Positions 12,197-58,814 are shown, numbered from the stretch's first letter. The stretch: DNA of 64,000 nt from an uncultured Verrucomicrobiota bacterium (GCA_942490575.1 CALNYA010000069.1:53901-117900); one strand, 5' to 3'. Program-made: numbers and translations. The notes: generated from the sequence alone by a model not told the origin.

Positions 12197-12230
12197 AAAA
12201 GAGGGGGGGAGGGGGGGGGGGGGAGGAGGG
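12195..12230. other. Poly-G / G-rich tract forming the joint between the mlaC fragment and an unrelated coding fragment
   Basis: The sequence is gggaaaagagggggggagggggggggggggaggaggg. Coding homology stops on both sides of it. Confidence 0.8.
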
Positions 12231-38872: not shown

Positions 38873-39790
38873 TCACTCGACCAGATAGCTTCGCCGTTCC
38901 AGGGCGACGCTGCCGGTCGGATCGATCGAATAGACGGCGACATCGTCCAATCCGGGCGTGTCGGGGTGGTAGATCAGAACCTCTCCGTCCGACGAAACGT
39001 CGCCTAGCCTGGAAAAGACCTTGCGCATGACGCGGGGTCCTTCGGGCGGAGGAGCAAAGGATGCTTTCAGGGCTCCCGCGCGGGAACGCGTCCCGGGCGC
39101 GGCGGACGATGAGAGTGAAACGGCGTCGCCGACTTTGACCTTGGTTGCTGAAGCGCGGGCGCCGCGGGTCGAACGGGGCGAACGGGTGGAACGGGTGGAA
39201 GGCGTTGCCGGGGCCCCTGGGAGCGGGGTCGAGGTCGAGGGCTCCAGAACGATCCGCCGGTCGAGGCAGGTGGCGATCGGGCTCAACTCCGAGAGGGTCG
39301 CGCCCGTTTGCCGCAGCAGGAACACGAGATTGGCGCGGGCGAAGGAAACGACTCCATCACCGGGGCCGGAGAAGTAGACATCCCCGCTGGAGGACCGCTC
39401 CTTCAGCGTCATTCCCGGCAGTTGGAACTCGCCCAGCAACCGGATCAGAAGGTCGTGAGCCGACCCGCGGGAATCGCACTCGAAACAATCCGTGTGCAGC
39501 ACAAGGGGAGGGTCGTCGCGCATCGGTCGGGAGGGGGGGGCAGCCAGCATTCCAGGCGGGCTCGCCGCGCGGGTCCGCGGCTGCCATACCGATTGGATAT
39601 GGGGCGGGAATTCGGCCAGTCGAACGGGGCGGATTCGCAGGGGCGCCCAGCCTGGGATCTCGGATCCGGAAAGATGGAAATCGCGAACGAAGATTCGCCG
39701 TTCCGACCGGGTGCGATTCCGCCACTGATTGAAGGCATGGGCCGCCTTCAACGCATCGATCAATGGGGATTGAGGTGGGAGTGGCATCAT
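38873..39790 (-). CDS. Orphan protein, last gene of the NRPS operon
   Basis: A 305 aa ORF starting 6 nt after the upstream stop. I recognise no motif. A central low-complexity linker (PATPSTRSTRSPRSTRGARAS) is encoded by short tandem repeats near 39170-39210. Confidence 0.55.
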   Translation of the reverse strand: MMPLPPQSPLIDALKAAHAFNQWRNRTRSERRIFVRDFHLSGSEIPGWAPLRIRPVRLAEFPPHIQSVWQPRTRAASPPGMLAAPPSRPMRDDPPLVLHTDCFECDSRGSAHDLLIRLLGEFQLPGMTLKERSSSGDVYFSGPGDGVVSFARANLVFLLRQTGATLSELSPIATCLDRRIVLEPSTSTPLPGAPATPSTRSTRSPRSTRGARASATKVKVGDAVSLSSSAAPGTRSRAGALKASFAPPPEGPRVMRKVFSRLGDVSSDGEVLIYHPDTPGLDDVAVYSIDPTGSVALERRSYLVE

Positions 39791-39796
39791 GGCGGA

Positions 39797-41059
39797 CTAG
39801 ATGAGCATCCGGCGCTGACGGGTCAATGGCTGCGGGACGCAGTTGAGTAGGGAATCCGGCGCGGCGAGGCGCCCACGGTAGTCGTAGCCAAAGGTCCCGG
39901 CGAAGGGAAGATCGGCTGGGAGAAGGGGGAGATAAGGTGGGAGCGATGGATTGAAGGAGGCGCTGACCAGCACGCAAGCGTCCCAGATGGGGTCGTCGAA
40001 GCCGCATTCCCGTCCCCACGCCACCTCGTGAAACTGAAAACCCGTGGCGATGCCGCAGGGCAGGCTGAAATCCGGGTAGCCGATGACTCGAATGGGGTTG
40101 GTGTTGAAAAAGGTCCCGATGGCCGGCCCGATGCGGGACTGCCAGAGATCGCATCCCAGGATATTGGCGAACGAGGAGACGATCGTCGCGCAATCGCTGC
40201 AATTGACGTAGGGACCGTTGCCATACCCCCCCGCCAACCGATCGAGGAAGGCGGTGCAATCGAAATAGATCAGGGAATACTGCGTCAGCGCGAAAATGGG
40301 ACAGCCGTAGGAAACGACCTTCGGACCCAGGCGGAAGACCGATTCCGTGATCAATCGCAGAGCGTCCTTGCGACGACGCGCTCCCTGGGCCCAATGACAG
40401 GCGTGATCGAGGACGTCGGTCCAGGGGAGCTGGGTGTTCGCGACGGAGAACGGGGTTTGAAGCCAGGGAAGCTTGGGCACCTCCAGGATGAGGTAGACGC
40501 GATGCCGGCTGACGGCGAAGTCGGTCCACGCGAGGCTGGTTGCCTCCCGGTATTGCCAGCGCCACGTGATGGTGTGGATTCCCACGCCCGCCGACCAAAG
40601 GCGGTGATTGACCAGCCTGAACGTCTCGAATCCGGTTTCGCCGCCTGTGGGGAAGGTGATCCAGCGTGGCTGCGCCTCTCCTAGAACATGGTCGTTCGCC
40701 GTGACGAGCGCCCGAAGCGCACGCACCCGCGGGTCCAGGGAAGGAGGGGTTCCCGTGGTCGGCAGCCACCGGTCCACCTCGGCCCACCGCGAACGCGCGG
40801 GTGAATCAGGAATGGCGCGGACCTCGACGGCGCGCACGCCGGGGCGGGGTGGGCGGAATCGAGCCTGGATCAAGATGGGCAGGCCCCATGTGCCGGACGT
40901 CGCATAGGCCACGGGGCTATGGACGCCGCCCGGGGTGGCGCCGGCCTGCCATTCCGGGAGCGGTAGGATCGTGGACGCGTTCCTGCGCAGGTTCAGGGCG
41001 GTGATTCCGGCGACGCCCGGCTGGCAATTGAAGAGAACGGCATCGAGGGTGATGCTCAC
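39797..41059 (-). CDS. Uncharacterised protein with a transglutaminase/papain-like Cys-His-Asp motif set, translationally coupled to the last NRPS gene
   Basis: The GTG at 41059 overlaps the NRPS TGA at 41056-41058 (GTGA), giving 420 aa. The N-terminal region looks beta-rich. The C-terminal half has GPYVNCSDCATIVSSFANILGCDL (Cys287, codon 40199-40201), GFQFHEVAWGR (His344) and IWDACV (Asp360). Their order and spacing echo the GQCWVFAGV...LG / FHVWNE.W / DATPQ core of transglutaminases. Confidence 0.5.
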   Translation of the reverse strand: MSITLDAVLFNCQPGVAGITALNLRRNASTILPLPEWQAGATPGGVHSPVAYATSGTWGLPILIQARFRPPRPGVRAVEVRAIPDSPARSRWAEVDRWLPTTGTPPSLDPRVRALRALVTANDHVLGEAQPRWITFPTGGETGFETFRLVNHRLWSAGVGIHTITWRWQYREATSLAWTDFAVSRHRVYLILEVPKLPWLQTPFSVANTQLPWTDVLDHACHWAQGARRRKDALRLITESVFRLGPKVVSYGCPIFALTQYSLIYFDCTAFLDRLAGGYGNGPYVNCSDCATIVSSFANILGCDLWQSRIGPAIGTFFNTNPIRVIGYPDFSLPCGIATGFQFHEVAWGRECGFDDPIWDACVLVSASFNPSLPPYLPLLPADLPFAGTFGYDYRGRLAAPDSLLNCVPQPLTRQRRMLI

Positions 41060-44000
41060 GCGGGGCCCTCGGTTGGAATTCGGTATTCGTTTCGCGGCAG
41101 CGGGACCAATGCGGGCCCGTCGGCGACGGGCGCGGACCGGAGTCGGTCCACCTCGAGGGCGAGCGCCCCGACGGTGGGCGACTGAAACAGGCATCGCAGC
41201 GGCAATTCCACGCGGAATTCATCGCGGATCCGCGAGACCAGCTGCGTCGCCATGAGGGAATGGCCTCCCAGGTCGCGGAAGAAATGGTCATGAACTCCCA
41301 CGGGTCGCGCCTTGAACAATTCCGTCCACAATCTGGCCATCACCACTTCGGTCGGAGTTTGTGGAGGCGCATACGCCACCTTCCTGGCCGGCTCGGGCGC
41401 GCCGAGCCTCCCGATCGCGTCGCGGTCAACCTTTCCATTGGGAAGCAACGGCAGGGATTCAAGGATCCGGAACGTGGGGGGGACGAGATGCGCCGGGATT
41501 CGACTCCCCAGCCAGGCGCCCCAGTCAATGGCGCCAAGATCGTCCCCGTTTCGGGGAATCAGGAAGGCGACCAGCGTGTCGGCCTCCCCGCTTGCATCCC
41601 GCGCCCCGGAGACCACGGCCGCGCCCAGGGAGGGATGCGTCGCCAGCACATTCTCCACCTCGGCGGGCTCGACCCGGTAGCCCCGGATCTTGAGTTGCTG
41701 ATCGAGCCTTCCCAGGAATTCCAGGTTTCCATCGGCTCGAAAACGCGCAAGGTCGCCGGTCCGGTAAAGGCGCGCGCCGGGCCGACTTGAGAACGGGTGC
41801 GGCGCGAAACGCTCCGCCGTGAGTCCAGGCTGGTGAAGATAGCCGCGCGCGAGACCGTCGCCCCCGACCCAGAGCTCGCCCGGGACGCCCATGGGGGTGG
41901 GTCGGCGTTCGCCGTCGAGGACGTAGACTTCGAGATTCGGGATGGGGCGTCCGATCGGGACCGTGTCCGAGACGGGCGGTTCCCGCCGGGGATCAAACCA
42001 CGTGACGTCCCAGGTTTCGGAGGTTCCGTAGAGGTTGAAGAGGGTGGCCGCCGGCAGCTGAGCCGTGAATCGGCCGTAGAGTTCGGCGCCGAGGGCTTCG
42101 CCGCTGCTCACCCAGAAGCGAAGATGCGGCAGCTGCTCGGCCAGGTCGGTTCCGGTATCCAGCATCGCGCGCAGCAGGGAAGGCACGAGCCACAGGCGGG
42201 TCACCCGCCGGCGGTTGAGTAGGTCGATGAGACTCCAAGGGTCCCTGACAATCTCATCGGGAACGATCACCGTCGGAATGCCGCGGAGCAAGGGGCCGAG
42301 CCATTCCCAGAGGGAGTCCACGAAATTCAGGGAGGTCTTTTGGCATCCGACTTCACCGGGTTCGAATGGGTACTCCTCCCACATCCAGGCCAGGCGGTTG
42401 AGGATCTGCCGGTGCTCAACGGCGACTCCTTTGGGCTGTCCGGTCGATCCGGAGGTGAAGATGACATACGCCAGCTGATCGGGCCGGATCCGGGAGGACG
42501 CCGAGGGCGGCGGCGGACGGCTCCGCGGTCTCCTGATCCACGAGGATGAGAGTCGCCCCCGAGGGACAAAGTGGCCGCAGGGACGCGCGCGAAAGGATCC
42601 GCTGGACGCGCGCCTCGACCGCCATGGACGCGAGGCGCGCGGCGGGATACGACGGATCGAGCGGCAGGTAGACACCTCCCACCATCCAGATGGCGAAGAG
42701 CGCGACGGGAACGTCCAGACCCCGCTCAAGGCAGACGCCAACGGGCTCCTCCGGGTTCACTCCATGTCGCCGCAGTTCACCCGCCAGACGCCTCGCCCGG
42801 CGATGGAGTTCCGCGATCGTGATCGAGGCCTCGCCATCCTCGAAAGCGATGGATTCGGGGGTCCTCGCGGCCTGGTCCTCGAGCCTCTCCACGACGCTTC
42901 GCTCATCCGGCCGGGATTCGCGTTCCCCGTTCCATTCGGTGAGCAGGAGGCGTTCCTCATCCGGCGTGAGGAGGTTGCATTTCGAAATGGGTTGGTCGGG
43001 GTCGGCGGCCATCGCCTCCAGGAGGCTCAGGTAGTGGGCCGCCATGCGTTCGATGGTGGGAGGGTCGAAAAGATCGCAACTGTACTCCATCTGGGCGGTG
43101 AGCCCGGCTCCGCTCTCCCAAAGGCTCACCGACAAGTCGAAGATGGCGGAGGGTGGTTTGACGTCGAGCAACGTCGTCGCGGCGGATTCCCCGGGGGCGG
43201 AGCGCGACGCGGTCGGTCCGGTCGGCATTTGGAAGACGACCTGAAAGAGTGGATTGAGACCGAGGTCGCGATCCGGCTGAAGCTTTTCGACCAGCATCTC
43301 AAAGGGCAGATCCTGATGGGCGTAGGCGGCCAGGGCGGATTCCCGCACGCGCCCCAGCAGTTCGCGAAATGTCGGCGAGCCGGAGGCGTCGGTGCGAAGA
43401 ACGAGGGTGTTGACGAAGAAGCCGATGATGCCCTCCAACTCCGCGCGGTTGCGATTGGCGATGTAGGTCCCCACGACGAGGTCCTCCTGGCGCGTGTAAC
43501 GGACGAGGAGCGCTTCGAAGGCGGTGAGCGTCGCGATGAAGAGCGTCACCCCCGCGGATTCACTCAGGCGTTTCAACGCCAGCGCCAAGGCGCGCGGACC
43601 ATGAAATGTGTGCGTCGCACCGCGGTACGACTGCGCAGGCGGTCGCGAACGGTCGGTCGGCAGGCGAAGAATGGGCGGGTTCGAAAGCGCGCGAGTCCAG
43701 AATTCCAGTTGGCGGTCGAGGGTTTCGCCCCGCAGCCAGCGCCGCTGCCACACGGCGAAATCGGAGTATTGCAGCGACGGTTCGGGCAGGGGGGATGGGC
43801 GGCCATACGCGAAGGCGGTGTAGAGCGCCGTCAACTCCCGCGAGAAGATCCCCATCGACCAGCCGTCGCTGATGATGTGGTGTTGCGAGAGGAGGAAGAG
43901 GTGGTCGGCGGGCCCCAACCGCAGGAGCGACGCCCGCAGCAACGGGCCCGTCGCCAGGTCGAAGGGCCGCCCGGCATCCTCCTGGGCGAGTCGAAGGGCC

Positions 44001-44377
44001 TCCCCTTCGCGCGCTTCCGGCGGAAGGGCGCGAAGGTCGACCACCGCCAGTGACAGTCGGGCCTCGGGGGAGACGATCTGGACCGGTTGCCCGTCGACCA
44101 CGCCGAACGTCGTGCGCAGGGACTCGTGACGACGCACGATTTCATTCAGGCACCGATCCAGGACCGAAACCTCGATGGGAACATTCAATCGTACCGCGAT
44201 CGCGACATTGTAGAACGGGTTGCCCGGAGTGAGTTGATCCAGAAACCAGAGGCGCTGCTGCGCGAAGGAAACCGGGTGGGCGCGGCGCTGGCCCGATCGC
44301 TGTTCAAGCATTCGGGCGAGCAAGGCCCGCCGGTCGCCGGGGGAACCATTCGGCGGTTCGGCTTCGGAGGGGTTCAT
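41056..44377 (-). CDS. NRPS module 4, C-A-T, with no release domain; interrupted by one frame change near 42470-42500
   Basis: The ATG at 44377 overlaps the upstream stop (ATGA). The C domain has SFAQQRLWFLDQLTPGNPFYNV and HHIISDGWS (tail of ORF 42416..47380). The A domain continues in ORF 41056..42741 with LAYVIFTSGSTGQPKG, an unusual NLYGTSE, YRTGDLARFRADGNLEFLGRLDQQLKIRGYRVE and LPNGKVDR. The T domain has DLGGHSLMATQL, followed by only about 40 aa. The span is 3322 nt, not a multiple of 3. Confidence 0.9.
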
Positions 44378-47300
44378 GACGTGGCTTCGTCGAGTTCCGT
44401 TGTTCCCAATTCCGCGAGGAGCGCTTCCACCTCGGCGTCGGAAAGACCCGCGAGGGCCTCCGGTGTGAGGCGATCGGCGACCGGGCGGATGGCCGGCGGA
44501 ACGGCCGTTGAATCGGCGGGTTCCGCGCGCGCCGCCTCGACCGCCGCCGCCATGCCCGCGACGGTCGGCGTCTCGAAGAGGGCCCGGAGCGGAATCTCGA
44601 CCTGAAACCGCTCGCGGATGCGTGAGATCAGCTGGGTTGCCAGGAGGGAGTGCCCTCCGAGTTCGGTGAAGAAGTGATCGAACGCGCCCACCCGTGGCAC
44701 GCCCAAGAGGTCCGACCAAACCCCGGCGAGGGACGCCTCCAACGGGGTCCGCGGCGTCACACTCGCGGCTCCCGCCCGGTTGTGCGCGAAATCCGGCTCG
44801 GGAAGGGCCCGGCGGTCCACCTTTCCATGAGCCGTGACCGGCAAGGCCTCGAGGACCACGAAAGTCGCGGGGACCATGTGTTCGGGAAGTCGCTCCTGAA
44901 GACCACGCCGCAGACTGGGAACGAGTCGACGGCCGTGAAGTCCCTGCAAGGGCTGATTGGCGTAGGCGCCCCAGGGGCGCCTCGGGAGTCGCTGCGCCGC
45001 GGGCCACCAGGAAGGCGAGGCTTTCCCACCGGCCGCGCTGGTGAACCAGACATCGAGGCGGTCGTCGTTCCCCGACCCGGACCATCCCACCTCGGCCGTT
45101 CGGCCGAGGTCCGCGCCGAGTCGCCAAAGGGATTCCGGTTGGATGGCGATCGACGCGGGGCGGGTCCCTTCCCACGCACGCAGTTCGGCCACGGTGCGGA
45201 TCTCCGACGCATCCTGAAGTCCCGCGAGTCGGATCACGTCCGGCCACACCAGGGCGTTCGGGATGCGACGGACGCCGATGCCATCCGGCCCCGCCTCCCG
45301 CACGCGCTCGCGAAGCCGATCGAGGTTGAGATCCGCCGATTCCCAGTCCAGCCATGGGCAATCGACGGTTTGGACTTCCGAATCTGCGTCTCCGACGGTC
45401 AGCGTGACGTCGTACCGGTATTGGCTGAGTTCGTTGAGGTAGCCGCCGCGTTTGGGTTCGATCCGGACGCTCCGAATCAGGGGGAAGGCCTGTCGCAACG
45501 CCACGAAGAACGCGGGGTCGAGCACCAGTTCCTCCTCGATCGCCGTGCGACGCCGCACCGCCTCGCGGACCGCTGCCAGCGTGGTTGTCGCCCCGCCTCG
45601 CTCCAATTCGATCGCCGCATGGAAGGGTTCCAGAAGGCAGCGGTTCCGGATATCCCCGAGGAAGACCGTCCCGCCGGGTCGCACCAGCTTCACGACCCCT
45701 TCGAGCACGCGCACCAGGTACTCGATGGTGGGGAAGTACTGGATCACCGAATTGAGGATCACCTGGTCGAATCCCGGTTCGAGAGCGTCGAGGTTTTCGG
45801 CGGTCCGCTCGAGGACGCGAACATGACGCCAGCGATCCGCCTGGCGATTCAGAATCCGGGACACGTATCCAAGCGCGGTGGCCGAAAAGTCCGTGCCGAT
45901 GTACTCGCGACACGTCGGCGCCACGCGAAAAAGGAGCAAGCCGGTCCCGCACCCGATTTCCAGGATGCGTTGGGCCTCCGCCGAGCGGACGCGCTGGACG
46001 GTGCGCTCGACCCATTCCTTCATTTCGGAAGGGGGGATGGGTCGCCCCGTGTAGCTGCTGTTCCATCCGATGATGTTGAATGTCGGATCGGTTTCGGGCT
46101 CGGGGCCGGAATAAGTCGCCTCGTAGAGCGACCTCCAATGGTTCACGTGTTCGGCCACAAGCGCCGCGTCGTTCCCATCCTTTTCCGGGGATTCGACGGA
46201 GCGGGGAACCACGTAGGCCACCAACCGCTTCTCGCCGGACGGTTCGGACGACGCGGCCGCCACCGCCTCCTTGACGAGTGGATGCGCCCTGATGGCGGAT
46301 TCGACTTCGCCGAGTTCGATCCGAAATCCCCGCACCTTCACCTGCTGGTCGAGTCGTCCGAGGAACTCGATGTCGCCGTCGGCCCGGTACCGGGCCAGGT
46401 CGCCGGTGCGATACAGGCGTTGTCCCGGCCGTTCGGCGAAGGGATTCGGGATGAACCGTTCCGCCGTGAGTTCGGCGCGACCCAGGTAGCCGCGGGCCAA
46501 GCCGACACCGCCGAGGCAGAGTTCGCCGGGCACACCAATGGGAACCGGTTGTCCGTGGGAATCCACGATATAAACCCGCGTGTTGGCGATGGGACGGCCG
46601 ATGGAGGGCTTGCGTCCGTCGTCCGAGGGCCGGATCACGCCAGCCGTGCTCACGACCGTATCCTCGGTGGGGCCGTAATGATTCACGACATCGAAAGGCA
46701 GGCCGGTCCTGGGCGGGTGGTGCATTTCGTCGCCACCGGTCAGCAGATGTCGCAAAGCCAGCGTCGATGGCCAGGTTCGTTCGAGGGCGGCTTCGGCGAG
46801 AGGGGTGGGAAGAAACGCCACCGTGATCCGCTCGCGCGCCAGCCACGCCACCAAGGCTCCAGGATCGACGCGCACGTCGTCCGGCACCACATGCACGCTC
46901 GCGCCGGCGCAGAGATACGGCCAGATCTCCCAGACCACGGCGTCGTAGGAGGGCGCGGCCAGTTGCGTCGCGCGATCGGCCCCCGTGATCCCGTAAGTCC
47001 GGTTGTGCCACGCCACCAGATTGACCAGGCCATCGTGGCAAATCTCGGCGCCCTTCGGCCGGCCCGTGGAACCCGAGGTGTAGAGGACGTAGGCGATATC
47101 CTGGGGAGTGGGTCTTCCTTCCGGCGCCTCGGGACGCGTTCCGGCGGGCGGTTCCGGCGCACCGTCCAGTTCGACCACGCGAGCCGGACCGCCCGTCAGA
47201 ATCGCCGCGCCGGTCGCGTCCGTTGCCACCAGTAGGGATCGACTGTCCCCCAGCGTGTACCACTGGCGGTCCTTGGGATTGTCGGGGTCGAGCGGAAGAT

Positions 47301-49038
47301 ACGCCGCGCCTGTTTTCCAGACCGCCCAGAGAGCGACCACCAACTCCACACTTCGGGGGAGACAGACGGCGACGACACACTCGGGACCCGCGCCCAAGGC
47401 CCGCAGACGGACGGCCAGGCGCGCCGATTCCGCGTCAAGTTCCGCATAGGTCAACCGTCGGCGGGTGTCGGCGACCGCGAGCGCCTCGGGCGTCCGCGCG
47501 GCCTGGGCGGCGACGAGGGAGGGCGTCGCCTGATCGCGGGGGTAGTCGGCGTTGGTCTGATTCCATTCCACCAGAACCTGCCGGCGTTCAGCCGGCGGAA
47601 GGCATGGAATCCTGGACAAGGGCAGATCCGGTTCGGCGGCGATGCCCCGCAGCAGCTGAAGATAATGCGTCGCGAGGCGGGCGATGGTCGACGTCTCGAA
47701 CAGCGCCGTGCTGAATTCGATCTCCCCTTCGATCCCTCGTGGGCCCTGCGACAGGTTGAACGCCAAATCGAAGATCGCCGTGCCCTTCTGAAGCATCAGG
47801 GAGGCGCCGCCGCCGGCCCCCGTCGCGGTCGCCGGAGAGGTGCCCGCGAAGAGTTGAAAGGTGACCTGGAAGAGCGGATTCCGACTCAGGTCGCGTTCCG
47901 GTTGCAGTTCCTCGACCAGTCTCTCGAAGGGAAGGTCCTGGTGGGCGTAGGCGCCGAGGGCGACCTCGTTCACCCGCCGCAGGAGTTCGCGGAAAGGAGG
48001 GTCGCCGGAGAGGTCGGTCCGCAGGACGAGCGTGTTGACGAAGAACCCGATGAGGTTCTCCAACTCGGAGCGGCTTCGACCCGCGACAGGCGCTCCCACG
48101 GCGACGTCGTCCTGCCGGGTGTAGCGATGGAGAAGCGTCTTGAAGGCGGCGAGCAGGAGCACGAAGAGGGTGACTCCCTCCCGGCGAGCGAGACTCTGGA
48201 GCCCGGCGCTGAGCAATGGAGGCGCCTCGAATCGATGGGTCGCCCCGACGTAGCTGGAAACATCGGGGCGGGGCCGGTCGGTGGGCAGGTCGAGCCTGGG
48301 AAGATCGCGCAGGTGCCCCCGCCAATAGTCGAGTTGACGGTTCAGGGCGTCCCCCTCCAGCGAGCGCCGCTGCCAAAGGGCGAAATCGGGGTATTGCACG
48401 ACCAATTCCTCCAGGGGAGAACCCCGACCCAGCGCCAAGGCGCCGTAGAGCGCGTTGAGTTCCCTTGCGAAAACCCCCATGGACCAGCCGTCGCTGATGA
48501 TGTGATGAAGGGTCAGAAGGAAGAACTGATCGCGGTCGTCGAGGCGGAGGAGTTTGGCTCGAAGGAGGGGACCCGTCGTCAGATCGAACGGATGCCGGGC
48601 CTCCTCCGTGGCGAGGCGCATGGCCTCCGATTCGCGCGAGGCGCTCGGGAGGGATCGAAGGTCGACGACGGGCAGGGACAGGGTGAGCGTCGGAGCCACC
48701 ACCTGTTCGGGCTCCCCGTCGGCGTGGCGGAAGGATGTCCGGAGCGCCTCGTGTCTGCGCACGATTTCATTCAGGCAGCGCTCGAGGATTCCCGGATGCA
48801 TCGGCATCGAGATCCGGATGGCGCTGGTGACGTTGTAGAATGGGTTGCCCGGCGACAGTTGATTCAGGAACCAAAGGCGCTGTTGCGCGCAGGAAAGGGG
48901 GAGGCGCGCATCGGGGGATCGGCGGGGAATCACCTCCGGAGCATGGGCGGCCAATCCCTCCTTCCGCAGGAGGGAGGCCACCAGGGCCTGTCGGCGCGAG
49001 AGGTTGATTTCGCTTCGTGGGTTCCGGGGGGAAGTCAT
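44374..49038 (-). CDS. NRPS module 3, C-A(N-MT)-T
   Basis: 1554 aa. The C domain has HHIISDGWS. The A domain has AYVLYTSGSTGRPKG, NHYGPTE and YRTGDLARYRADGDIEFLGRLDQQVKVRGFRIE. A methyltransferase is inserted before LPEHMVP/AHGKVDR. The T domain has ELGGHSLLATQL. Confidence 0.95.
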   Translation of the reverse strand: MTSPRNPRSEINLSRRQALVASLLRKEGLAAHAPEVIPRRSPDARLPLSCAQQRLWFLNQLSPGNPFYNVTSAIRISMPMHPGILERCLNEIVRRHEALRTSFRHADGEPEQVVAPTLTLSLPVVDLRSLPSASRESEAMRLATEEARHPFDLTTGPLLRAKLLRLDDRDQFFLLTLHHIISDGWSMGVFARELNALYGALALGRGSPLEELVVQYPDFALWQRRSLEGDALNRQLDYWRGHLRDLPRLDLPTDRPRPDVSSYVGATHRFEAPPLLSAGLQSLARREGVTLFVLLLAAFKTLLHRYTRQDDVAVGAPVAGRSRSELENLIGFFVNTLVLRTDLSGDPPFRELLRRVNEVALGAYAHQDLPFERLVEELQPERDLSRNPLFQVTFQLFAGTSPATATGAGGGASLMLQKGTAIFDLAFNLSQGPRGIEGEIEFSTALFETSTIARLATHYLQLLRGIAAEPDLPLSRIPCLPPAERRQVLVEWNQTNADYPRDQATPSLVAAQAARTPEALAVADTRRRLTYAELDAESARLAVRLRALGAGPECVVAVCLPRSVELVVALWAVWKTGAAYLPLDPDNPKDRQWYTLGDSRSLLVATDATGAAILTGGPARVVELDGAPEPPAGTRPEAPEGRPTPQDIAYVLYTSGSTGRPKGAEICHDGLVNLVAWHNRTYGITGADRATQLAAPSYDAVVWEIWPYLCAGASVHVVPDDVRVDPGALVAWLARERITVAFLPTPLAEAALERTWPSTLALRHLLTGGDEMHHPPRTGLPFDVVNHYGPTEDTVVSTAGVIRPSDDGRKPSIGRPIANTRVYIVDSHGQPVPIGVPGELCLGGVGLARGYLGRAELTAERFIPNPFAERPGQRLYRTGDLARYRADGDIEFLGRLDQQVKVRGFRIELGEVESAIRAHPLVKEAVAAASSEPSGEKRLVAYVVPRSVESPEKDGNDAALVAEHVNHWRSLYEATYSGPEPETDPTFNIIGWNSSYTGRPIPPSEMKEWVERTVQRVRSAEAQRILEIGCGTGLLLFRVAPTCREYIGTDFSATALGYVSRILNRQADRWRHVRVLERTAENLDALEPGFDQVILNSVIQYFPTIEYLVRVLEGVVKLVRPGGTVFLGDIRNRCLLEPFHAAIELERGGATTTLAAVREAVRRRTAIEEELVLDPAFFVALRQAFPLIRSVRIEPKRGGYLNELSQYRYDVTLTVGDADSEVQTVDCPWLDWESADLNLDRLRERVREAGPDGIGVRRIPNALVWPDVIRLAGLQDASEIRTVAELRAWEGTRPASIAIQPESLWRLGADLGRTAEVGWSGSGNDDRLDVWFTSAAGGKASPSWWPAAQRLPRRPWGAYANQPLQGLHGRRLVPSLRRGLQERLPEHMVPATFVVLEALPVTAHGKVDRRALPEPDFAHNRAGAASVTPRTPLEASLAGVWSDLLGVPRVGAFDHFFTELGGHSLLATQLISRIRERFQVEIPLRALFETPTVAGMAAAVEAARAEPADSTAVPPAIRPVADRLTPEALAGLSDAEVEALLAELGTTELDEATS
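44900..46230 (-). other. Embedded SAM-dependent N-methyltransferase-type domain of module 3 (approximate bounds)
   Basis: The motifs are ILEIGCGTGLLLFRVAP (around 45935-45975), VILNSVIQYFP and PGGTVFLGDIR. It sits between the A8 and A9 core motifs. Confidence 0.8.
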
Positions 49039-52000
49039 GGTCGGTCGTTTTCCGCGAGCAGGCGCTCCACTTCGTCATCCGACATTCCTTCGACGGCCAG
49101 CAGCAGCTCCGAAGTCCGCGTCAGGCGCCGTTCGGTTTCGGGATCCGTCGCCAACCGGACGGCGAGTTGGGCGACGGTTGGGGCCTCGAAAACGCGCCGC
49201 AAGGGGAGCTCGATCCGAAAGGTGTCGCGAATGCGCGACGCCAACTGGGTGGCCAGCAGGGAATGGCCGCCGAGTTCCGCGAACAGGTCGTCGTGGAGGC
49301 CCACCTGGCGCAGGCCGAGCACCCCGGCCCAGATTCCAGCGAGGACCCGCTCCACGGGGGTATTCGGTGCCACGAAGGACCTGGCTAGTTCGGGTCGGTC
49401 CGGGCTCGGCGAGGGCAAGGCGTGTCGATCGATCTTTCCATTCGGGGTCAACGGAAGGGCATCCAGCAACACCATGGCGGAAGGCACCATGTACTCCGGC
49501 AGATTCCCGCCGAGGAATTCACGAAGCAGGGGAACGAGGCGCTGCGAAAAAGCCGCCTGCATTGGGTTGTTGGCGTAGCTGGACCAGGGCTTCGCGGGCA
49601 CGGCCTCGACAGGAAACAGGGCCGCGTGGCCGTCCCCTTCGGCGTCGTCCCGCCGACGGAGCATCAGCACGTCAAAGGCGCCAGGTTCACCCGCGTGGGA
49701 CCACCGAATGTCGGTGTCATAGCTCAAGGCCCGTCCCAGCTCCCAGAAGTCCTCGGGGTCCGCGCCCCCGCCGTCGGAGTCGGAGGGTTCCGAGCCGTCC
49801 CGCGTCCCGGCCACGGTGTCGCCGTCCCCGGACTCGGCGAGTTCCCTCATCCGTCGCACCGCCTCGGCCAGGCGCGCGTTGGGAACCCCGCGGAACCCCA
49901 CGAGAGGGGGTCGTTCACGCACCAGGTGTTGTCGAAGGGCGTCCAGGTTCGCCTGGGGGCCGGGCCAATTCCTCCAGGGAATCCCGTCGCCGGATTCCAT
50001 TCCCGCCGTCGCTTCCGAACGGAGGATCACATCGGTCCGAAACCGGCTCAGTTCGTTGAGATACCGGCCGCGTTTGGGCCGGGTCTGAATCGCCGTGAGG
50101 TTGGGGAAGCGCCGCCGCAAAGCGTGGAAGAAGAGGGGATCGATCACCAACTCCTCGTCCCGCCCGATGGCGTTGGTGATCCGCCGTCGAAGTTCAGGAA
50201 CCGCGAGGGAGGACGGAGCCTTGTCCCATTGGATGGCGGTGTGGAGGCATGGAAGGAGCGGCAACAATCGCACATCGCCCAGGAACAGGTTTCCTCCGGG
50301 GGCCAGGCGGGCCATGGCGCGGTCCAGGACCCGGATGAGGTAGGCGATATTGGGGAAGTACTGAACCACGGAGTTGAGAATGATCGTGTCGAAGGGGCCC
50401 TCCCCGACGCCTTCGAGATCCTCGGCCGCCCGGTGGGACACGCGGACGCGTTGGGTCCACGCTCCCTGGGCGGCCAGTTCGTTCCGGAGGTACTCGACCG
50501 CGACCTCCGAGAAGTCGAGCGCCGCGTACTCCTGGCAGTGGGGCGCCAGACGAAACAGGAGGAGTCCCGTTCCGCATCCGATCTCCAACACGCGGGAGGG
50601 ATTCAGGGAGGCGATCGCCTCCACGGTTCGATCCACCCATTCCCGCATCTCCCCCGCGGGGATCGGATCGCCCGTGAAGGAGCTTGTCCATCCCGTGAAA
50701 TCCGACTTCGCGTCCTGGGCGGGCGACCGTTTTTCCAATCCCTCGTAGACCACTTCGTCGTAGACCTTCCGCCATTGCCGCACCTGCTGGCGGCTCCAGG
50801 ACTCCATCTCGAGTTCGGAGTTGGGATCGCTGGAATCCTCCCGCGCCCGCACGACATAGGCCACCAGCCTGCGGTCGTGGGACGGGTCGTCCGTCACGGT
50901 CGCGACCGCGTCCCCGACCGCCGGATGTCGCCGCAGCATCGCCTCGATCTCCCCGAGTTCGATGCGGAACCCGCGCAGCTTGACCTGATGATCGACGCGA
51001 CCGAGGAACTCGATCTGGCCGTCCGCTCGGTACCGGGCCCGATCCCCCGTTCGGTAGAGCGGATCGCCCGTGGTCGGCTGGAATGGATCCGGAACGAAGC
51101 GTTCGGCGGTCAAGTCCGGGCGATGGAGGTAGCCGCGCCCGACGCACGCTCCGCCGATGTGCAATTCGCCCGGAACCCCGATGGGTACCGGTTGCCCGCG
51201 CCGATCCAGGATGTAGTTGCGGACGTTGGCGATGGGGCGACCGATGGGGACCCATCCCCGGCATCCTTCCGCCGACCACGTGAAGGTGGTGGAGTTGATC
51301 GTGCATTCGGTCGGTCCGTAGAGATTCGTGACGGCGACCGGGAGACGGGCGAGGAGCGCCTCGACGACCTCGGCGGAGAGCGCCTCGCCGCCGCAGAAAA
51401 TCCGGCGCAACCGGCGGCACTCCGCCAGCCCGGGCTCCTCCAACAGGATCCTCAACAAGGACGGCACCAATTGGAGAACGCTGATCTCGCGCCGGAGGAG
51501 CGACTCGATCAGCCGCGCCGGATCGGGGTGGTCCTCCTGCGGATGCAGGACCAGGCGCGCTCCCGCCAGCAATGGCGCCCACACCTCCCAGACCGAGGCG
51601 TCGAAACTGGTCGCCGTGCGCTGAAGCACGCGATCCTCGGGGGTCAATGGGAAGTCCGCCTGCATCCAGAGCATGTGGTTGCAGATCGCGCGATGCGGTA
51701 CCACGGCGCCCCGAGGTCGGCCGGTGGATCCGGAGGTGAATATCACATACGCGGCATCCTCGGGCGCGCTTTCGCCCTCGAGGTTTTCGTCCGGGGTATC
51801 GGCCCAGGAACGGGCATCCCGATCGAGGCAAACCGGGAGAGCGCCCCCGGGGGCGAAGCGAACGACCAGACGTTCGTGGGTCAGCAGGACGCCGACCCGC
51901 GCCTCGGCGACCATGAGTTCAAGCCTCCGCTTCGGATACGCGGGATCCAGGGGCAGGTAGGCGCCACCGGCCTTGAGCACGGCCAGGAAGGCGATCACGA

Positions 52001-53774
52001 GATCGGGACTTCTCTCCAGGCAGACGCCCACCACTTCATCCGCGCCGACGCCCAACCCCTTCAAGTGCCGCGCCAGTCGGTTCGCCCGGGCGTTCAACTC
52101 GGCGAAGGAGAGGAACTCGTCCCCCCACTCGACGGCCGGAAGATCCGGGGTCCTCTCCACTTGCGCCTCCACCAACCGGTGGAGCGTCGCATCGGGGGGA
52201 TGGGGGCGGTGGGTCTGATTCCACTCGACCAGAATTCGCCGCCGCTCGGCGGGTCCGATCAACGGATACTCGTCGACGCCGCGGTCCGGATCCGCGGCGA
52301 CGCCTTCCAGGAGCAATCGGTATTGTCCGGCCATTCGCTCGATCGTCGTCGCGTCGAAAAGGTCCGTGTCGTATTCCCACGTACCGACGAGGTCATCGCC
52401 GCCGTCGAAGAGACTGAACGCGATGTCGAAAATGGACGTTTGGCGTTGGATATCGACGGGTCGGACTTGCGCGGCACCGGATGGGGAAACCGCCGTGGGC
52501 GCGTTGAACAACTGAAACGTGACCTGGAAAAGCGGGTTTCGGCTGAGGTGCCGCTCGGGCCGCAGTTCGTCCACGAGCGTTTCGAAGGGCAAGTCCTGGT
52601 GCGCGAAGGCTTCCAGCGCCACCCGCCGCACCCTCTGGAGACATTCCCGAAACGTCGGTTCCCCCTCGAATCCGACGCGGAAAACCAGGGAGTTCACAAA
52701 GAAGCCGATCAGCCCCTCCAATTCGCGTCGGTTGCGCCCGGCGATGGGCGTCCCCACGACGACGTCGTCCTGTCCGGAATGCCGGTGGAGCAGCACCAGG
52801 AACGTCGCCATGAGGGTCATGAACAGCGTGGCATCCTCCGCCCCGCTCAATCGCCTGAGGGGCGCCACAAGGGAGGCGGGAAGGCGCATGGGCAGCGTCG
52901 CTCCCCGGTACCGCTGAACGTCGCTCCTGGGACGGTCGGTGGGTAGTTGAAGGACGGGCAGGTCGGCGAGTTGGCGCTTCCAATAGTCCACCTGGGCCCG
53001 CAGGACGTCTCCCCGCAGCCATCCCCTCTGCCAGACGGCGAAATCGGGGTACTGGATGGGAAGCTCCTCGAGCGGCGACGGACGTCCATAGGCGAACGCC
53101 GAGTAGAGTTCGGTGAGCTCCCGCGCGAAGATCCCCATGGACCAGCCATCCGCCACCACGTGATGCAAGGTGAGCGTGAAGATGAAGTCGGTCTCTCCCA
53201 GGCGCAGCAATCCGGCGCGCAACAGGGGTCCTGTCGCCAGGTCGAAAGGCTGGCGCGCCTCCTCCGTAATCCGCCGCGTCGCCTCCGCTTCGCGTTCCGT
53301 CTCCGCCAGTCCGCGCAGGTCCACGACGGGCACGGCGACCTTCAGCTCCGGCGCCACCACCTGCGCGGGGTCTCCGTCCGTCGACACAAGGGTCGTCCTC
53401 AGGCTCGCGTGCCGCCGGACGATCTCGTTCACGCAGCGCTCCATCAGGGGCGCGCTGACGGGGAAGGAGAAGCGCAGGGCCGACGGGATGTTGTAGAAGG
53501 CGTTTCCAGGCGCCAGTTGGTCCAGAAACCAAAGGCGCTGTTGGGCGAACGAGAGGACGGCGGGACCATCCTCCCGCCGGCACGGAATGCCGGGGTCGCG
53601 CGTGGCGCGCGCGGACCGCCCCTGGAGTCGCCGTTGAAGCAGCGCCTGCTTCTCGGAACTCAGGGCGGACCGGCGGGCTTCCGCGGGAATCGGTGGAATG
53701 GAGGGGGAGGCGTTCATGTTTTGGGGTCTCAAGATTCGGACGCGCCTCGTTCCGTTCTCGCGGGTTGATCTCAA
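49035..53774 (-). CDS. NRPS module 2, C-A(N-MT)-T
   Basis: 1579 aa from the TTG at 53774 (alternative ATG at 53717, MNASPSIPP). The C domain has HHVVADGWS. The A domain has AYVIFTSGSTGRPRG, NLYGPTE and YRTGDRARYRADGQIEFLGRVDHQVKLRGFRIE. A methyltransferase is inserted before LPEYMVP/PNGKIDR. The T domain has ELGGHSLLATQL. It shares an ATGA overlap with the module 3 gene. Confidence 0.95.
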   Translation of the reverse strand: MRSTRENGTRRVRILRPQNMNASPSIPPIPAEARRSALSSEKQALLQRRLQGRSARATRDPGIPCRREDGPAVLSFAQQRLWFLDQLAPGNAFYNIPSALRFSFPVSAPLMERCVNEIVRRHASLRTTLVSTDGDPAQVVAPELKVAVPVVDLRGLAETEREAEATRRITEEARQPFDLATGPLLRAGLLRLGETDFIFTLTLHHVVADGWSMGIFARELTELYSAFAYGRPSPLEELPIQYPDFAVWQRGWLRGDVLRAQVDYWKRQLADLPVLQLPTDRPRSDVQRYRGATLPMRLPASLVAPLRRLSGAEDATLFMTLMATFLVLLHRHSGQDDVVVGTPIAGRNRRELEGLIGFFVNSLVFRVGFEGEPTFRECLQRVRRVALEAFAHQDLPFETLVDELRPERHLSRNPLFQVTFQLFNAPTAVSPSGAAQVRPVDIQRQTSIFDIAFSLFDGGDDLVGTWEYDTDLFDATTIERMAGQYRLLLEGVAADPDRGVDEYPLIGPAERRRILVEWNQTHRPHPPDATLHRLVEAQVERTPDLPAVEWGDEFLSFAELNARANRLARHLKGLGVGADEVVGVCLERSPDLVIAFLAVLKAGGAYLPLDPAYPKRRLELMVAEARVGVLLTHERLVVRFAPGGALPVCLDRDARSWADTPDENLEGESAPEDAAYVIFTSGSTGRPRGAVVPHRAICNHMLWMQADFPLTPEDRVLQRTATSFDASVWEVWAPLLAGARLVLHPQEDHPDPARLIESLLRREISVLQLVPSLLRILLEEPGLAECRRLRRIFCGGEALSAEVVEALLARLPVAVTNLYGPTECTINSTTFTWSAEGCRGWVPIGRPIANVRNYILDRRGQPVPIGVPGELHIGGACVGRGYLHRPDLTAERFVPDPFQPTTGDPLYRTGDRARYRADGQIEFLGRVDHQVKLRGFRIELGEIEAMLRRHPAVGDAVATVTDDPSHDRRLVAYVVRAREDSSDPNSELEMESWSRQQVRQWRKVYDEVVYEGLEKRSPAQDAKSDFTGWTSSFTGDPIPAGEMREWVDRTVEAIASLNPSRVLEIGCGTGLLLFRLAPHCQEYAALDFSEVAVEYLRNELAAQGAWTQRVRVSHRAAEDLEGVGEGPFDTIILNSVVQYFPNIAYLIRVLDRAMARLAPGGNLFLGDVRLLPLLPCLHTAIQWDKAPSSLAVPELRRRITNAIGRDEELVIDPLFFHALRRRFPNLTAIQTRPKRGRYLNELSRFRTDVILRSEATAGMESGDGIPWRNWPGPQANLDALRQHLVRERPPLVGFRGVPNARLAEAVRRMRELAESGDGDTVAGTRDGSEPSDSDGGGADPEDFWELGRALSYDTDIRWSHAGEPGAFDVLMLRRRDDAEGDGHAALFPVEAVPAKPWSSYANNPMQAAFSQRLVPLLREFLGGNLPEYMVPSAMVLLDALPLTPNGKIDRHALPSPSPDRPELARSFVAPNTPVERVLAGIWAGVLGLRQVGLHDDLFAELGGHSLLATQLASRIRDTFRIELPLRRVFEAPTVAQLAVRLATDPETERRLTRTSELLLAVEGMSDDEVERLLAENDRP
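49560..50860 (-). other. Embedded SAM-dependent N-methyltransferase-type domain of module 2 (approximate bounds)
   Basis: The motifs are VLEIGCGTGLLLFRLAP (around 50565-50600), IILNSVVQYFP and PGGNLFLGDVR. It sits between the A8 and A9 core motifs. Confidence 0.8.
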
Positions 53775-56700
53775 ACCACCAGTTGCGCCTCCGCCTCGGC
53801 ATCGGACAGCGATTCGATCTCGCGGAGCACCAGTTCTTCAATCAGCACAGCCAAGCCCGCGACCGTCGGCGCGTCGAAGACCGCGCGAAGCGGCAGGTCG
53901 ATGTCGAACGATTCCCGGATCCGCGAAACCAATTGGGTCGCGCGCAACGAATGGCCGCCCAAGTCCGCGAAGAAGTGGTCGTGAATCCCGACGCGCTCAA
54001 GACCCAGCACTTCCCGAAAAATGAGCGCCAAGCGCTCCTCGGGCTCCGAGCGGGGCGCGACCAAGGCGGACGTCCGCGCGATCGCGTGGTCCGGGTCCGG
54101 CAGCGCCCCGCGATCCAGCTTCCCGTTGGGGTTCAGGGGCATCGCCTCGAGCCTGAGAAGGCGCGACGGCACCATGAACTCCGGCAGATGTCCGCGCGCG
54201 AATTCACGCAGCCCCGCCAGCCACGCGTCGACCGTCGGGTCCGCCGTCCCGCCATCCACCGCGCGGCCGGCGGAGGCGTCGCCGACGACATACGCGACGA
54301 GGACTTTGTCGCCATCCGGACGCCGGTGAAGGACCACGGCCGCATCGCGGACGCCTTCCCGCCGTCGGAGCACGGCCTCCACTTCGCCGGGTTCGATCCG
54401 GTAACCGCGAATCTTCGCCTGATGATCCAACCGCCCCAGGAACTCGATCGCGCCGTCGGGTCGGTGGCGTGCCAGGTCGCCGGTCCGATAGAGCCGAGCG
54501 GCGGGGTCCGGCGAAAAGGGGTCGCGAATGAAACGTTCCCGAGTGAGGTCCGGTTGGCCCAGATAACCTAGGGCCAGTCCGTCGCCGCCCGTGAGCAATT
54601 CCCCCGGCACTCCGACCGGCACGGGTTGCAGGTGACGATCGACGACATGGACCCGGGTATTCCCGATGGGCCGTCCGATGGGCACCGTCGCTCCCACATC
54701 CTCCTCCCGCGTCAATCGATGGCAGCACGTGAACGTGGTGTTCTCCGTGGGCCCGTACCCATTGATCAGAACGTGACCGGGAAAGCGCCTTAGGAATCTC
54801 CGAACGTGTTCCGGGGACAGCACGTCGCCACCGGCGAGGAGTTGGCGCACGCCGGCAAGGCTTTCGATCGGACCATCCACCATCTGTTGGAAAAGGCTCG
54901 AGGTCAGCCACAGCGTGGTGACGCGGTGCTCGACGATGAACCGGCCCAGATCCTCCAGGGATGGCGTGTCCGGGGGGTGGACGACCAAACGCCCGCCGTT
55001 GAGAAGCGCGCCCCAGATCTCGAAGGTGGACGCGTCGAATGAGATCGGCGCGAATTGAAGGAAAGTCTCCTCCTCCGGCGCGTCGACGACGCCCCCATCG
55101 CAGACCAGGCGCAGAACTCCGCGATGCGGAATGGCGGCGCCCTTGGGCCTGCCGGTGGATCCGGAGGTGTACATCACGTAGGCGATGGAATCGGGAGCCG
55201 CGTCGGGTGGCGGAGGGAGCGGGGTCCCCTGTTCGTCCTCGAATTCCGCATCCTCGCCGTCCAGTGCCAACCAGGGTATCCGCGACTCGGCGAAGAGCGG
55301 CGACCCGCGCGAACTCGCGACCACCAGGACGGGTGAACTGTCCGCCGTCATGAACCGCAGGCGTTCGGCCGGGTACCCGGGATCCAGGGGCACATAGGCC
55401 GCTCCCGCCTTGAGGATCGCCAACAGCGCCACGACCATTTCGGCGCCGCGCTCCAGGCAGACTCCCACCAACGATTCCGGGCCGACGCCCCTCTTCCGCA
55501 GGCGGCGCGCCAGGCGATCGGCCCGAGCGTCGAGTTCGGAATACGTTAGCCGCTCGTCTTCGAACTGAACCGCAACGCGTTCCGGGAAGCGCCGGGCGAT
55601 CTCCATGAAACGGGCGGGGATGCAGAGGTCCCGCGGGTAGGGCGTCGCGGTCCGGTTCCACTCCACCACGGCCCTGTGGCGTTCGGCCGCGGAGAGCATG
55701 GCCATGCGGGACACCGCGAGGTCGGGGTTGGCGACCGCGCCCTCAAGCAAGCGGAGGAAGTGCCCCGACAGTCTCGTGATCGTTTCCGCATCAAACAGCG
55801 CCGTGCTGAATTCGATCTGGCCCAGCAGGCGGTCCGCCGCTTCCCAAAGATTGACCGCCAGATCGAAGACGGCCGCGCCCCGCTCGACGCCGGGCACCGA
55901 TTCCGAGTTGGCGGCCGGCGCCAGCGGCACACCCAGGTTGCTGAACAGTTGAAAAGTCACCTGAAACAGCGGGTTGCGGCTGGGATCGCGCCTCGGTTGG
56001 AGTTCCTCCACCAGCTTCTCGAAGGGAACGTCCTGATGGGCGTACGCGTCGCTTGTCGTCTCCCGCACCCGTCGAAGGAGTTCGCGGAACGACGGGTCTC
56101 CGCGGAGGTCGAGACGCAACACCAGCGTGTTGACGAAGAAACCGATGAGCGGTTCGAGTTCGCTGCGGTTCCTCCCGGCGGTGGGAGCGCCGACAACGAC
56201 GTCATCCTGTCCCGAGTACCGGTGAAGCAACGCCACGAAACCCGCTAGCAGGGTCATGAAGAGGGTCGCCTCCTCCCTCCTCCCCAACTCGCGCAACCGC
56301 GCGCAGAGGACGGGTGGAATCACCAGAGATCGCGCGGCCCCTTCATAGGTGGCGATCGGCGGTCGTGGACGGTCCGTGGGCAGTCGAAGCACCGGCAGGT
56401 CCGCCAGTCGCTGGCGCCACCACGAAAGCTCCGAAGCCAGCCGGTCGCCCGTGAGAAACGAACGCTGCCAGACCGCGAAGTCCGCGTACTGGATCGGAAT
56501 GGCCGGCAGGGGCGAAGGCCGTTCGAGCCCAAACGCCGTGTAGAGGGCGGTCAGTTCGCGCGAGAAAACGACCATCGACCAGCCGTCGCTGATGATGTGA
56601 TGCAGGGTCAACAGGAAGATGTAGTCCGCGTCGCCCATCCGAAGAAGGGACGCCCGCACGAGGGGACCCTGAGCCAGGTCGAACGGGCGGCGCGCCTCCT

Positions 56701-58689: not shown

Positions 58690-58691
58690 TC

Positions 58692-58714
58692 GTGGAAGTG
58701 GAAGTGGAAGTGGA
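58692..58714. repeat. Tandem hexamer (GTGGAA)x3 plus a partial unit, immediately upstream of the decarboxylase start codon
   Basis: The + strand reads gtggaagtggaagtggaagtgga. On the coding (minus) strand this is TCCACTTCCACTTCCACTTCCAC, ending 2 nt before the ATG at 58689. Confidence 0.7.
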
Positions 58715-58814
58715 TTTGTCGCCCCCTTGGATTGTCGACTCGCGCCGCGTGCATCCCGACGACGGGACGATGCCGCGGATCCGAAACGGATGGATCGAAC
58801 CGATGGGTCCCGGG

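Follow-up and report, generated by a model that had tools for sequence, protein, structure and literature searches.

What does the last module of a nonribosomal peptide synthetase (NRPS) load when the aspartate of its binding pocket stands at position 236 instead of 235? The question is raised by a 64,000-nucleotide stretch of DNA from an uncultured Verrucomicrobiota bacterium (GCA_942490575.1, CALNYA010000069.1:53901-117900; the whole stretch is referred to as the window). Its minus strand carries a compact operon made up, in order, of a gene for a pyridoxal phosphate (PLP)-dependent decarboxylase, four single-module NRPS genes (modules 1 to 4), a gene for a 420-aa protein and a gene for a 305-aa protein. 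A first-pass annotation had suggested that the adenylation (A) domain of module 4 takes a beta-amino acid, or another amino acid derived by decarboxylation, as the last building block of the product. Our analysis supports a beta-amino acid, on the strength of the clade to which the domain belongs, of published binding-pocket codes and of the PanP-like decarboxylase gene, and narrows the choice to one compound: the module 4 A domain probably activates beta-alanine, which is the best-supported substrate.

Results

The pocket aspartate of module 4 is displaced to position 236

Binding-pocket codes were read against GrsA-PheA, the reference sequence being checked against PDB 1AMU (identical over residues 1-528 except residue 2); it yields DAWTIAAICK at the ten canonical positions. 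Alignment with MAFFT gave codes that begin with Asp235 for modules 1 to 3 (Table 1) and VDWWVSLDVK for module 4. The A4 motif of module 4, FVDSLWE, aligned without a gap to FDASVWE of GrsA-PheA, which places Val at 235 and Asp at 236, and a HMMER alignment to both A domains of LgrA, also gap-free at these two positions, gave the same register. In the A5 motif, NLYGTSE of module 4 stands against YGPTE in modules 1 to 3. The shift of Asp from 235 to 236 and the GTSE core in place of GPTE, both noticed in the first-pass annotation, were therefore recovered, and profile alignment placed the Asp at 236 and not at 235.

The end of the code was sensitive to the choice of sequences aligned. Ser301, Leu322 and Lys517 (code positions 6, 7 and 10) were obtained in every alignment. 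When canonical relatives carrying YGSSEVAAD were included, the subfamily of module 4 (YGTSEx-WD) appeared with one residue deleted, and positions 330 and 331 became Trp and Asp. The code VDWWVSLDVK, previously derived by hand, was thus reproduced exactly by MAFFT against GrsA, but is better replaced by the family-aware code VDWWVSLWDK. The latter is identical to VDWVISLADK at seven of ten positions and to VDWVVSLADK at eight.

Asp236 without Asp235 is a trait of a family of adenylation domains

The 120 nearest homologues of the module 4 A domain in a protein collection were then compared. Position 236 was Asp in 119 of them and position 331 in 118. Position 235 was never Asp (Val in 96, Leu in 15, Ile in 5, and Ala, Ser or Gly in the rest) and position 325 was never Pro (Ser, Thr, Ala, Leu, Met or Cys). 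Two subfamilies were apparent. The larger one combines VDWV[IV]SLADK with YGSSEVAAD, the codes VDWVISLADK and VDWVVSLADK being present verbatim in many of the nearest homologues, and the smaller one, to which module 4 belongs, carries YGTSEx-WD. The VDWV[IV]SLADK domains are the nearest relatives of module 4 (~50-56% identity) and have in common with it Val235, Asp236, Trp239, Val or Ile at 299, Ser301, Leu322, Lys517, an A5 core, YG[ST]SE, devoid of Pro and, in the family-aware alignment, Asp331. The module 4 subfamily differs from them by Trp for Val at 278, Trp for Ala at 330 and the loss of one residue after A5; Trp330 and the deletion were found together in 27 of the 120 homologues.

Identity of module 4 to homologues with an x-D code (Asp at the second position) was 50-58%, compared to 39-45% with modules 1 to 3. 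In a neighbour-joining tree of 93 A-domain cores, calculated without bootstrap values, all x-D domains formed one clade with module 4 inside the WD subfamily, apart from modules 1 to 3, GrsA and every Asp235 domain of related loci; clustering with ordinary alpha-amino-acid A domains was not observed. Judged by this conservation, the pocket with Asp236 and without Asp235 is a family trait and not a chance substitution. A search of genome contigs for related loci returned two distant loci (36-42% identity) without an Asp236 x-D code; the sole V-initial A-domain code in these two loci was VAWFTSFNAK, and the others begin with D.

Published codes for beta-amino acids share a template with module 4

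Codes have been reported for several modules that load beta-amino acids. CahD, the terminal condensation-adenylation-thiolation (C-A-T) module of the cahuitamycin synthetase of Streptomyces gandocaensis, which has no thioesterase (TE) domain, has the code IDVTISLADK (PMC4757757), and the beta-alanine or beta-aminoisobutyrate modules KasE, SurC-A1, CdeI-A1 and CrpD-A1 have LDGTISLADK, LDTTVSLADK, LDTTVSLGDK and GDAVFSLADK, respectively (PMC12305651). The five codes conform to the template x-D-x-x-[IVF]-S-L-[AG]-D-K, and module 4, in the family-aware alignment, fits it at all positions except Trp330. The beta-aminoisobutyrate codes have small residues at 239 and 278 (T/T, G/T, A/V), which fits a methyl-branched substrate, whereas module 4 has Trp at both; an unbranched beta-alanine would therefore be favoured.

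CahD, taken together with CahF and CahG, resembles module 4 in being a terminal C-A-T module with neither a TE nor a reductase (R) domain, and in having a hydrophobic residue at 235 followed by Asp236. Cahuitamycin ends in beta-alanine, which is proposed to derive from L-aspartate through the cluster gene cahF, and release of the chain is proposed to occur in trans through an alpha/beta hydrolase (PMC4757757). The window likewise has a cluster gene proposed to provide beta-alanine and a proposed release in trans. The two systems differ at residues 239, 278 and 330 (IDVTISLADK compared to VDWWVSLWDK) and in the one-residue deletion after A5 in module 4. Furthermore, a transglutaminase-fold candidate adjoins module 4 in place of an alpha/beta hydrolase, and the decarboxylase of the window is a PLP-dependent, PanP-like enzyme.

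The code VDWVISLADK had been given in the first-pass annotation as a published beta-alanine code. It is present in nature, as described above for the nearest homologues, and is built on the same template as the published codes, but VDWVISLADK, VDWVVSLADK and fragments of them were not found in the searchable literature, and the assignment of VDWVISLADK to beta-alanine stays tentative.

Candidate aspartate decarboxylases recur beside the module 4 subfamily

The first gene of the operon encodes a group II decarboxylase. Among NCBIfam models, it matched best, and from end to end, TIGR03799 (PanP, PLP-dependent aspartate 1-decarboxylase) with 455.5 bits, the next family scoring 183.6 bits; NCBI gives the name PanP to homologues that share 46-47% identity with it. 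The operon decarboxylase on which the earlier suggestion had relied thus has PanP as its best family by a wide margin. It differs from PanP in scoring below the cut-off of that model and in its setting, as genes of this kind open the NRPS operon of no fewer than four related clusters and do not lie in a pantothenate context. The public gene call for this protein (P0241) has 541 aa, and a true start near 58689 instead of 58923 is therefore likely. Gamma-aminobutyrate (GABA) and 2,4-diaminobutyrate (Dab) were considered as substrates of module 4 and rejected: the score of the decarboxylase with the PanP model was far above those with the models for glutamate and Dab decarboxylases, and PanD was encountered repeatedly next to subfamily members.

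A metagenome collection was scanned with a DNA pattern for N-[LVIMF]-Y-G-T-S-E-x-W-D, which gave 117 loci. By tblastn, 115 of them matched the module 4 A domain at 36-58% identity (L006 and L034 were without match), and the core match in 113 loci corresponded to 95 clusters at 95% identity, covering 0.9 Mb; the median length of the loci was 8 kb. Flanking open reading frames (ORFs) were clustered after masking of NRPS and polyketide synthase (PKS) matches, as unmasked clustering was swamped by NRPS shadow ORFs. Three unrelated types of decarboxylase recurred beside the subfamily: pyruvoyl-dependent PanD (L012, L022, L063 and L098, with a degraded copy in L055/L119), PanP-like (L092, with 486.6 bits, and L104) and MfnA-like (L022, L048/L112, L100 and L102, with 238-247 bits). 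Genes of these types were found beside 12 subfamily loci, which represent 10 clusters at 95% identity. Only the PanD of L022 was scored against NCBIfam (TIGR00223, 168.8 bits for a cut-off of 106), whereas the other copies grouped with it in BLAST clustering and were assigned on that basis. The PanD genes of L012, L063 and L098 have the same orientation as the NRPS gene and lie next to it or a short distance upstream. PanD was seen in five non-redundant loci, compared to about 0.2 expected by chance for a single-copy gene in 0.9 Mb according to a rough estimate. PanD is an aspartate decarboxylase that acts on free aspartate, and PanP and archaeal MfnA have been reported to decarboxylate aspartate. 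The three families have one reported activity in common, the decarboxylation of aspartate, and the neighbourhoods therefore point to beta-alanine.

Several other observations were made in these loci. Recurrent neighbours, read from cluster representatives and not from a family search, included ABC transporters, type II thioesterases, phosphopantetheinyl transferases (PPTases) and reductases. In the near-identical loci L055 (3923-4306) and L119 (7439-7822), the PanD gene appears to be internally degraded, without the region around the Gly-Ser self-cleavage site; the related locus L022 has an intact PanD gene in addition to the MfnA-like decarboxylase. Some VDWW-type relatives have an embedded methyltransferase (MT), in the arrangement C-A(MT)-T (L001, 7266-10998; L123, 5362-9981), and such modules would yield an N-methyl-beta-alanine unit. 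Lastly, the subfamily A domain is next to PKS modules in 33 of the pattern-derived loci (34 PKS-positive loci when L001/L002 are counted).

A proposed route to a peptide ending in beta-alanine

Combined, these data suggest the following route. The PanP-like decarboxylase would convert free L-aspartate to beta-alanine, which the module 4 A domain would adenylate and load onto its own T domain. Within the pocket, Asp236 in place of Asp235, perhaps with the second conserved Asp at or near 331, would hold the beta-amine; with its acidic anchor displaced in this way, the pocket would suit an amine that lies one carbon farther away from the carboxylate, and Trp at 239, 278 and 329/330 would make it too narrow for anything but an unsubstituted beta-amino acid. 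The C domain of module 4, with an intact HHxxxDG motif, would then couple beta-alanine to the upstream tripeptide, whose residues we take, from published codes, to be roughly Val, N-methyl-Gln and N-methyl-Leu. As module 4 has neither a TE nor an R domain, the chain would be released in trans, and the best candidate for this step would be the transglutaminase-fold protein encoded by the coupled gene downstream. It is less likely that the decarboxylase serves only to supply an amine for a transglutaminase-mediated release, because aspartate decarboxylases are also found beside subfamily A domains in loci that have no transglutaminase-like gene.

Module 4 is interrupted by a single extra base

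The whole module 4 gene (44377..41056, minus strand) contains a single extra base near 42481 (LPDPA|DQLAYVIFTSGSTG; Table 1). The ORF 41056..42741 (minus strand), which had been taken for the A domain, was found to be only the part that follows the frameshift, with motifs A3 to A10 and the T domain, and does not contain the entire A domain. After repair, the 1106-aa product aligned from end to end, straight through the junction, with the intact 1114-aa orthologue of L122 (62% identity); the orthologues in L127 and L128 are also intact. Pfam detected only the C, A, A_C and T domains, and the core motifs A3, A6, A7, A8 and A10, the HHxxxDG motif of the C domain and the GGHS motif of the T domain are preserved. 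The public gene call P0001 (442 aa) begins after the frameshift, which is therefore part of the deposited assembly. Either the assembly is wrong at this base, or the gene became a pseudogene very recently.

Alternative readings of the module

A number of points weigh against beta-alanine as the substrate or against a functional module. No characterised domain with Trp278 and Trp330 or with the one-residue deletion was found, and position 330 is Ala or Gly in every published beta-alanine or beta-aminoisobutyrate code that we found. The second conserved Asp falls at 331 in the family-aware alignment and at 330 in the ungapped alignment with GrsA, so that its register is alignment-dependent, and the branches of the neighbour-joining tree carry no bootstrap values. 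The score of the decarboxylase, 455.5 bits, is below the PanP equivalog cut-off of 606.1 and its substrate is uncertain; a decarboxylase was seen in only ~10% of the non-redundant loci, which are short (median 8 kb). Finally, the module 4 gene is frameshifted in the assembly and requires a 1-nt correction to be read through.

The same genes might instead serve a route in which decarboxylation occurs on the carrier: the A domain would activate L-aspartate via its beta-carboxyl, and the PLP decarboxylase of the operon would remove the alpha-carboxyl of the isoaspartyl group held on the T domain to give beta-alanyl-S-T. This route is documented for beta-alanine-derived units in VinN/VinO, BolO/BolN and AfcQ/AfcP (PMC7756342, PMC12186527). 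However, the known systems consist of stand-alone adenylating enzymes and discrete carriers, whereas the A domain is here inside a C-A-T module, and the beta-aminoacyl-acyl carrier protein synthetases of the PDB gave far weaker matches than NRPS A domains (3.8e-45 for 6m01 compared to 2e-174). The window enzyme is a PanP-like member of the group II family PF00282, and decarboxylases of the BtrK/VinO type fall into another fold family of PLP enzymes. As pyruvoyl-dependent PanD, which uses free aspartate, lies beside subfamily members in several loci, and as the three Trp of the pocket argue for a smaller and not a larger substrate, we consider decarboxylation on the carrier improbable. About as little weight is given to a divergence of the Trp278/Trp330/deletion subfamily towards another small non-alpha substrate, for instance beta-aminoisobutyrate, isoserine, 2,3-diaminopropionate bound via its beta-amine, or GABA, with a decarboxylase that makes this substrate or an amine used elsewhere, such as a nucleophile for chain release. 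The separate cluster formed by the subfamily in the unbootstrapped tree, its two pocket substitutions and indel relative to the VDWV[IV]SLADK group and the score of the decarboxylase below the PanP cut-off are all consistent with such a divergence, and the template does not by itself discriminate, since the known beta-aminoisobutyrate codes also follow x-D...SL[AG]DK. The Trp pair at 239 and 278 would nevertheless leave less room for a methyl branch than the small residues of the beta-aminoisobutyrate codes, and the presence of PanD (TIGR00223, named aspartate 1-decarboxylase) beside members of the same subfamily in loci without a transglutaminase-like gene links the decarboxylase both with the A domain and with aspartate. 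A 2-hydroxy or 2-keto acid, with a product ending in an ester-linked unit, is very hard to reconcile with the data. Substitution of Asp235 has also been described for domains activating hydroxy or carboxy acids (PMC11356792), but the near-invariance of Asp236 and Asp331 among the homologues (119/120 and 118/120) fits a substrate that bears an amine, module 4 contains no ketoreductase domain according to Pfam, and its place is among the x-D domains, of which the known ones load beta-amino acids.

It is also conceivable, if unlikely, that the frameshift is real and that module 4 is a dead module, the product of the cluster being truncated or absent. The lesion does stand in the deposited assembly, with the public gene call starting downstream of it. 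Nonetheless, only one base is in excess, within a short run of C and G. Both halves are open in frame and retain every motif, their alignment with an intact orthologue (62% identity) covers the full length, and the three other NRPS genes (~3.3-4.7 kb each) are uninterrupted in an operon whose NRPS stretch extends over ~16 kb. Moreover, this question bears on expression and not on the nature of the domain, for which beta-alanine remains the best-supported substrate.

The operon is conserved and continues into an unannotated gene pair

The layout of the operon is given in Table 1. The four successive NRPS genes overlap at their stop and start codons, the GTG start of the 420-aa gene overlaps the TGA stop of module 4 (GTGA), an arrangement of translational coupling, and the 305-aa gene starts 6 nt past the end of the 420-aa gene.

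Table 1. Coordinates in the window of the operon genes and of the domains and motifs of module 4
Feature	Coordinates	Strand	Remarks	Evidence
PLP-dependent group II decarboxylase, PanP-like	57064..58923	-	first gene of the operon	PF00282, 155 bits; TIGR03799
NRPS module 1, C-A-T	53771..57046	-	code DAFWLGGTFK	Pfam, MAFFT
NRPS module 2, C-A(MT)-T	49035..53774	-	code DAWQFGLINK	
NRPS module 3, C-A(MT)-T	44374..49038	-	code DAWFLGHVVK	Pfam, MAFFT
NRPS module 4, C-A-T	41056..44377	-	no TE/R domain; repaired product 1106 aa; start overlaps the stop of module 3	
Module 4 condensation domain	42941..44281	-	HHIISDGWS at 43882-43856	PF00668, 361.9 bits
Module 4 adenylation domain	41422..42883	-	from the start of the Pfam AMP-binding match (upstream of A3) to A10	PF00501, PF13193
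A4 motif FVDSLWE	42304..42324	-	Val235 equivalent at 42321-42319, Asp236 equivalent at 42318-42316	
A5 motif NLYGTSE	42016..42036	-	followed by T-WD, one residue shorter than canonical relatives	
Module 4 carrier (T) domain	41158..41331	-	LGGHSL at 41271-41254	PF00550
+1 frameshift	42480..42482	-	one base too many in GGCCCGAT, with LPDPA before it and DQLAYVIF after it, shortly before A3	
420-aa transglutaminase-fold protein	39797..41059	-	candidate off-loading enzyme	no Pfam/NCBIfam match
305-aa protein	38873..39790	-	conserved partner of the 420-aa protein	no family match

The plan of the window recurs on a JGI contig (L125+L123), where a PanP-like gene with 56% identity is accompanied by four single-module NRPS genes (codes DAFWLGGTF, DAWQFGLID, DAWFLGHVI and VDWWVSLWD) and by genes for proteins of 392 aa and 282 aa. 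In related clusters with a PKS module (L126+L128 and L127), a terminal C-A-T module without TE and with the code VDWWVSLWDK is followed by two unannotated genes, and the L127 contig also has a PanP-like gene (P0261). A terminal module followed by the gene pair was likewise found in L122, L064, L088, L111 and the P0079 locus.

At least 691 proteins, every one of them annotated as hypothetical, make up the family of the 420-aa protein. Its AlphaFold2 model (pLDDT 91) was compared to the PDB with Foldseek, and the top 30 matches were to TG3, FXIIIa and TG2 (probability up to 1.0, TM ~0.37); according to this model the protein is of the transglutaminase fold. Cys290, His344 and Asp360 are invariant in 45 sequences, in the contexts C-x-x-[IV]-[VA]-S, H-E-V-A-W and D-A-C, and would form a putative catalytic triad, as judged by sequence conservation. 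The gene and that of its ~290-aa partner follow VDWWVSLWDK modules devoid of TE in at least nine loci. Because of this conservation and of the translational coupling to a terminal module without TE, the 420-aa protein is a reasonable candidate and may be the chain-release enzyme. The family is not confined to such a role, since no NRPS gene lies within 10 kb of at least one member and its partner (L124).

By 2020, reports of transglutaminase homologues working on thiotemplated intermediates were limited to two, AdmF (andrimid) and CtaJ (closthioamide); both act on carrier-bound thioesters or thioamides, and both chains contain beta-amino acids (PMC7898593). The 420-aa protein is likened to them by its predicted fold, together with the invariant Cys/His/Asp trio. 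In contrast to AdmF and CtaJ, it has an N-terminal beta-sandwich, as in animal transglutaminases, and a conserved partner of ~290 aa.

Other features of the window

The condensation domain of module 1 (53771-57046, minus strand) opens the gene directly. As no loading A-T didomain precedes it, this may be a starter C domain, which suggests that the product is N-acylated. Neither a thioesterase, a reductase, an MbtH-like protein nor a PPTase was found among the genes surrounding the operon in the window, and the flanking genes are housekeeping genes or of planctomycete type (PSCyt1, PSCyt2, PSD1, DUF1501, FeoB, ROK kinase). Directly upstream of the operon, 59794-63615 (minus strand) encodes a protein of 1273 aa that contains three long repeats, every one of them with a block 'GGGQNAN...WTM...DLFWRASDGSYGKGCC'; judged by eye, it looks like a repeated secreted-protein module.

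Between 4001 and 14000, the G+C content is 0.50-0.57 (compared to ~0.66 elsewhere in the window) and the sign of the GC skew flips near 12 kb. This stretch, whose genes are of housekeeping type and encode a cytochrome b, an AFG1-like ATPase, a histidinol dehydrogenase and an EPSP-synthase-family enzyme, could be a composition island or a chimeric assembly join. Two long ORFs of the window have no Pfam match, one of 873 aa (12157-14778, plus strand), which straddles the boundary of the G+C change, and one of 405 aa (15133-16350, minus strand).

Discussion

Module 4 appears to be a beta-alanine-type module of a kind already known, in a variant, VDWWVSLWDK, that we did not find described in the searchable literature. 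The clusters for destruxin (DtxS4), kirromycin (KirD) and cryptophycin (CrpG) encode an aspartate decarboxylase of their own that supplies a beta-alanine or methyl-beta-alanine module; because such pairs of decarboxylase and module are known from antibiotic and siderophore clusters, the biology itself is not new. What the analysis adds is a reading of a code: VDWWVSLWDK with the one-residue deletion, which is common in soil and freshwater metagenomes, probably means beta-alanine and could be used by specificity predictors. It also provides a structural prediction for the product of a planctomycete-type gene cluster, a short, partly N-methylated peptide that would end in beta-alanine.

The conserved unannotated gene pair that follows modules without TE may explain chain release, and is a more interesting lead than the identity of the substrate. 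We put forward, as a tentative proposal that may well turn out otherwise, that the 420-aa protein and its ~300-aa partner constitute an undescribed off-loading system for assembly lines without TE that end in a beta-alanyl thioester, and that the VDWWVSLWDK subfamily represents a distinct and very common beta-alanine code. The transglutaminase-like Cys would take over the peptidyl-beta-alanyl chain from the last T domain and pass it to an amine or to water. If this is true, the family of at least 691 proteins would be the third, and a much larger, example of transglutaminases acting on thiotemplated intermediates after AdmF and CtaJ.

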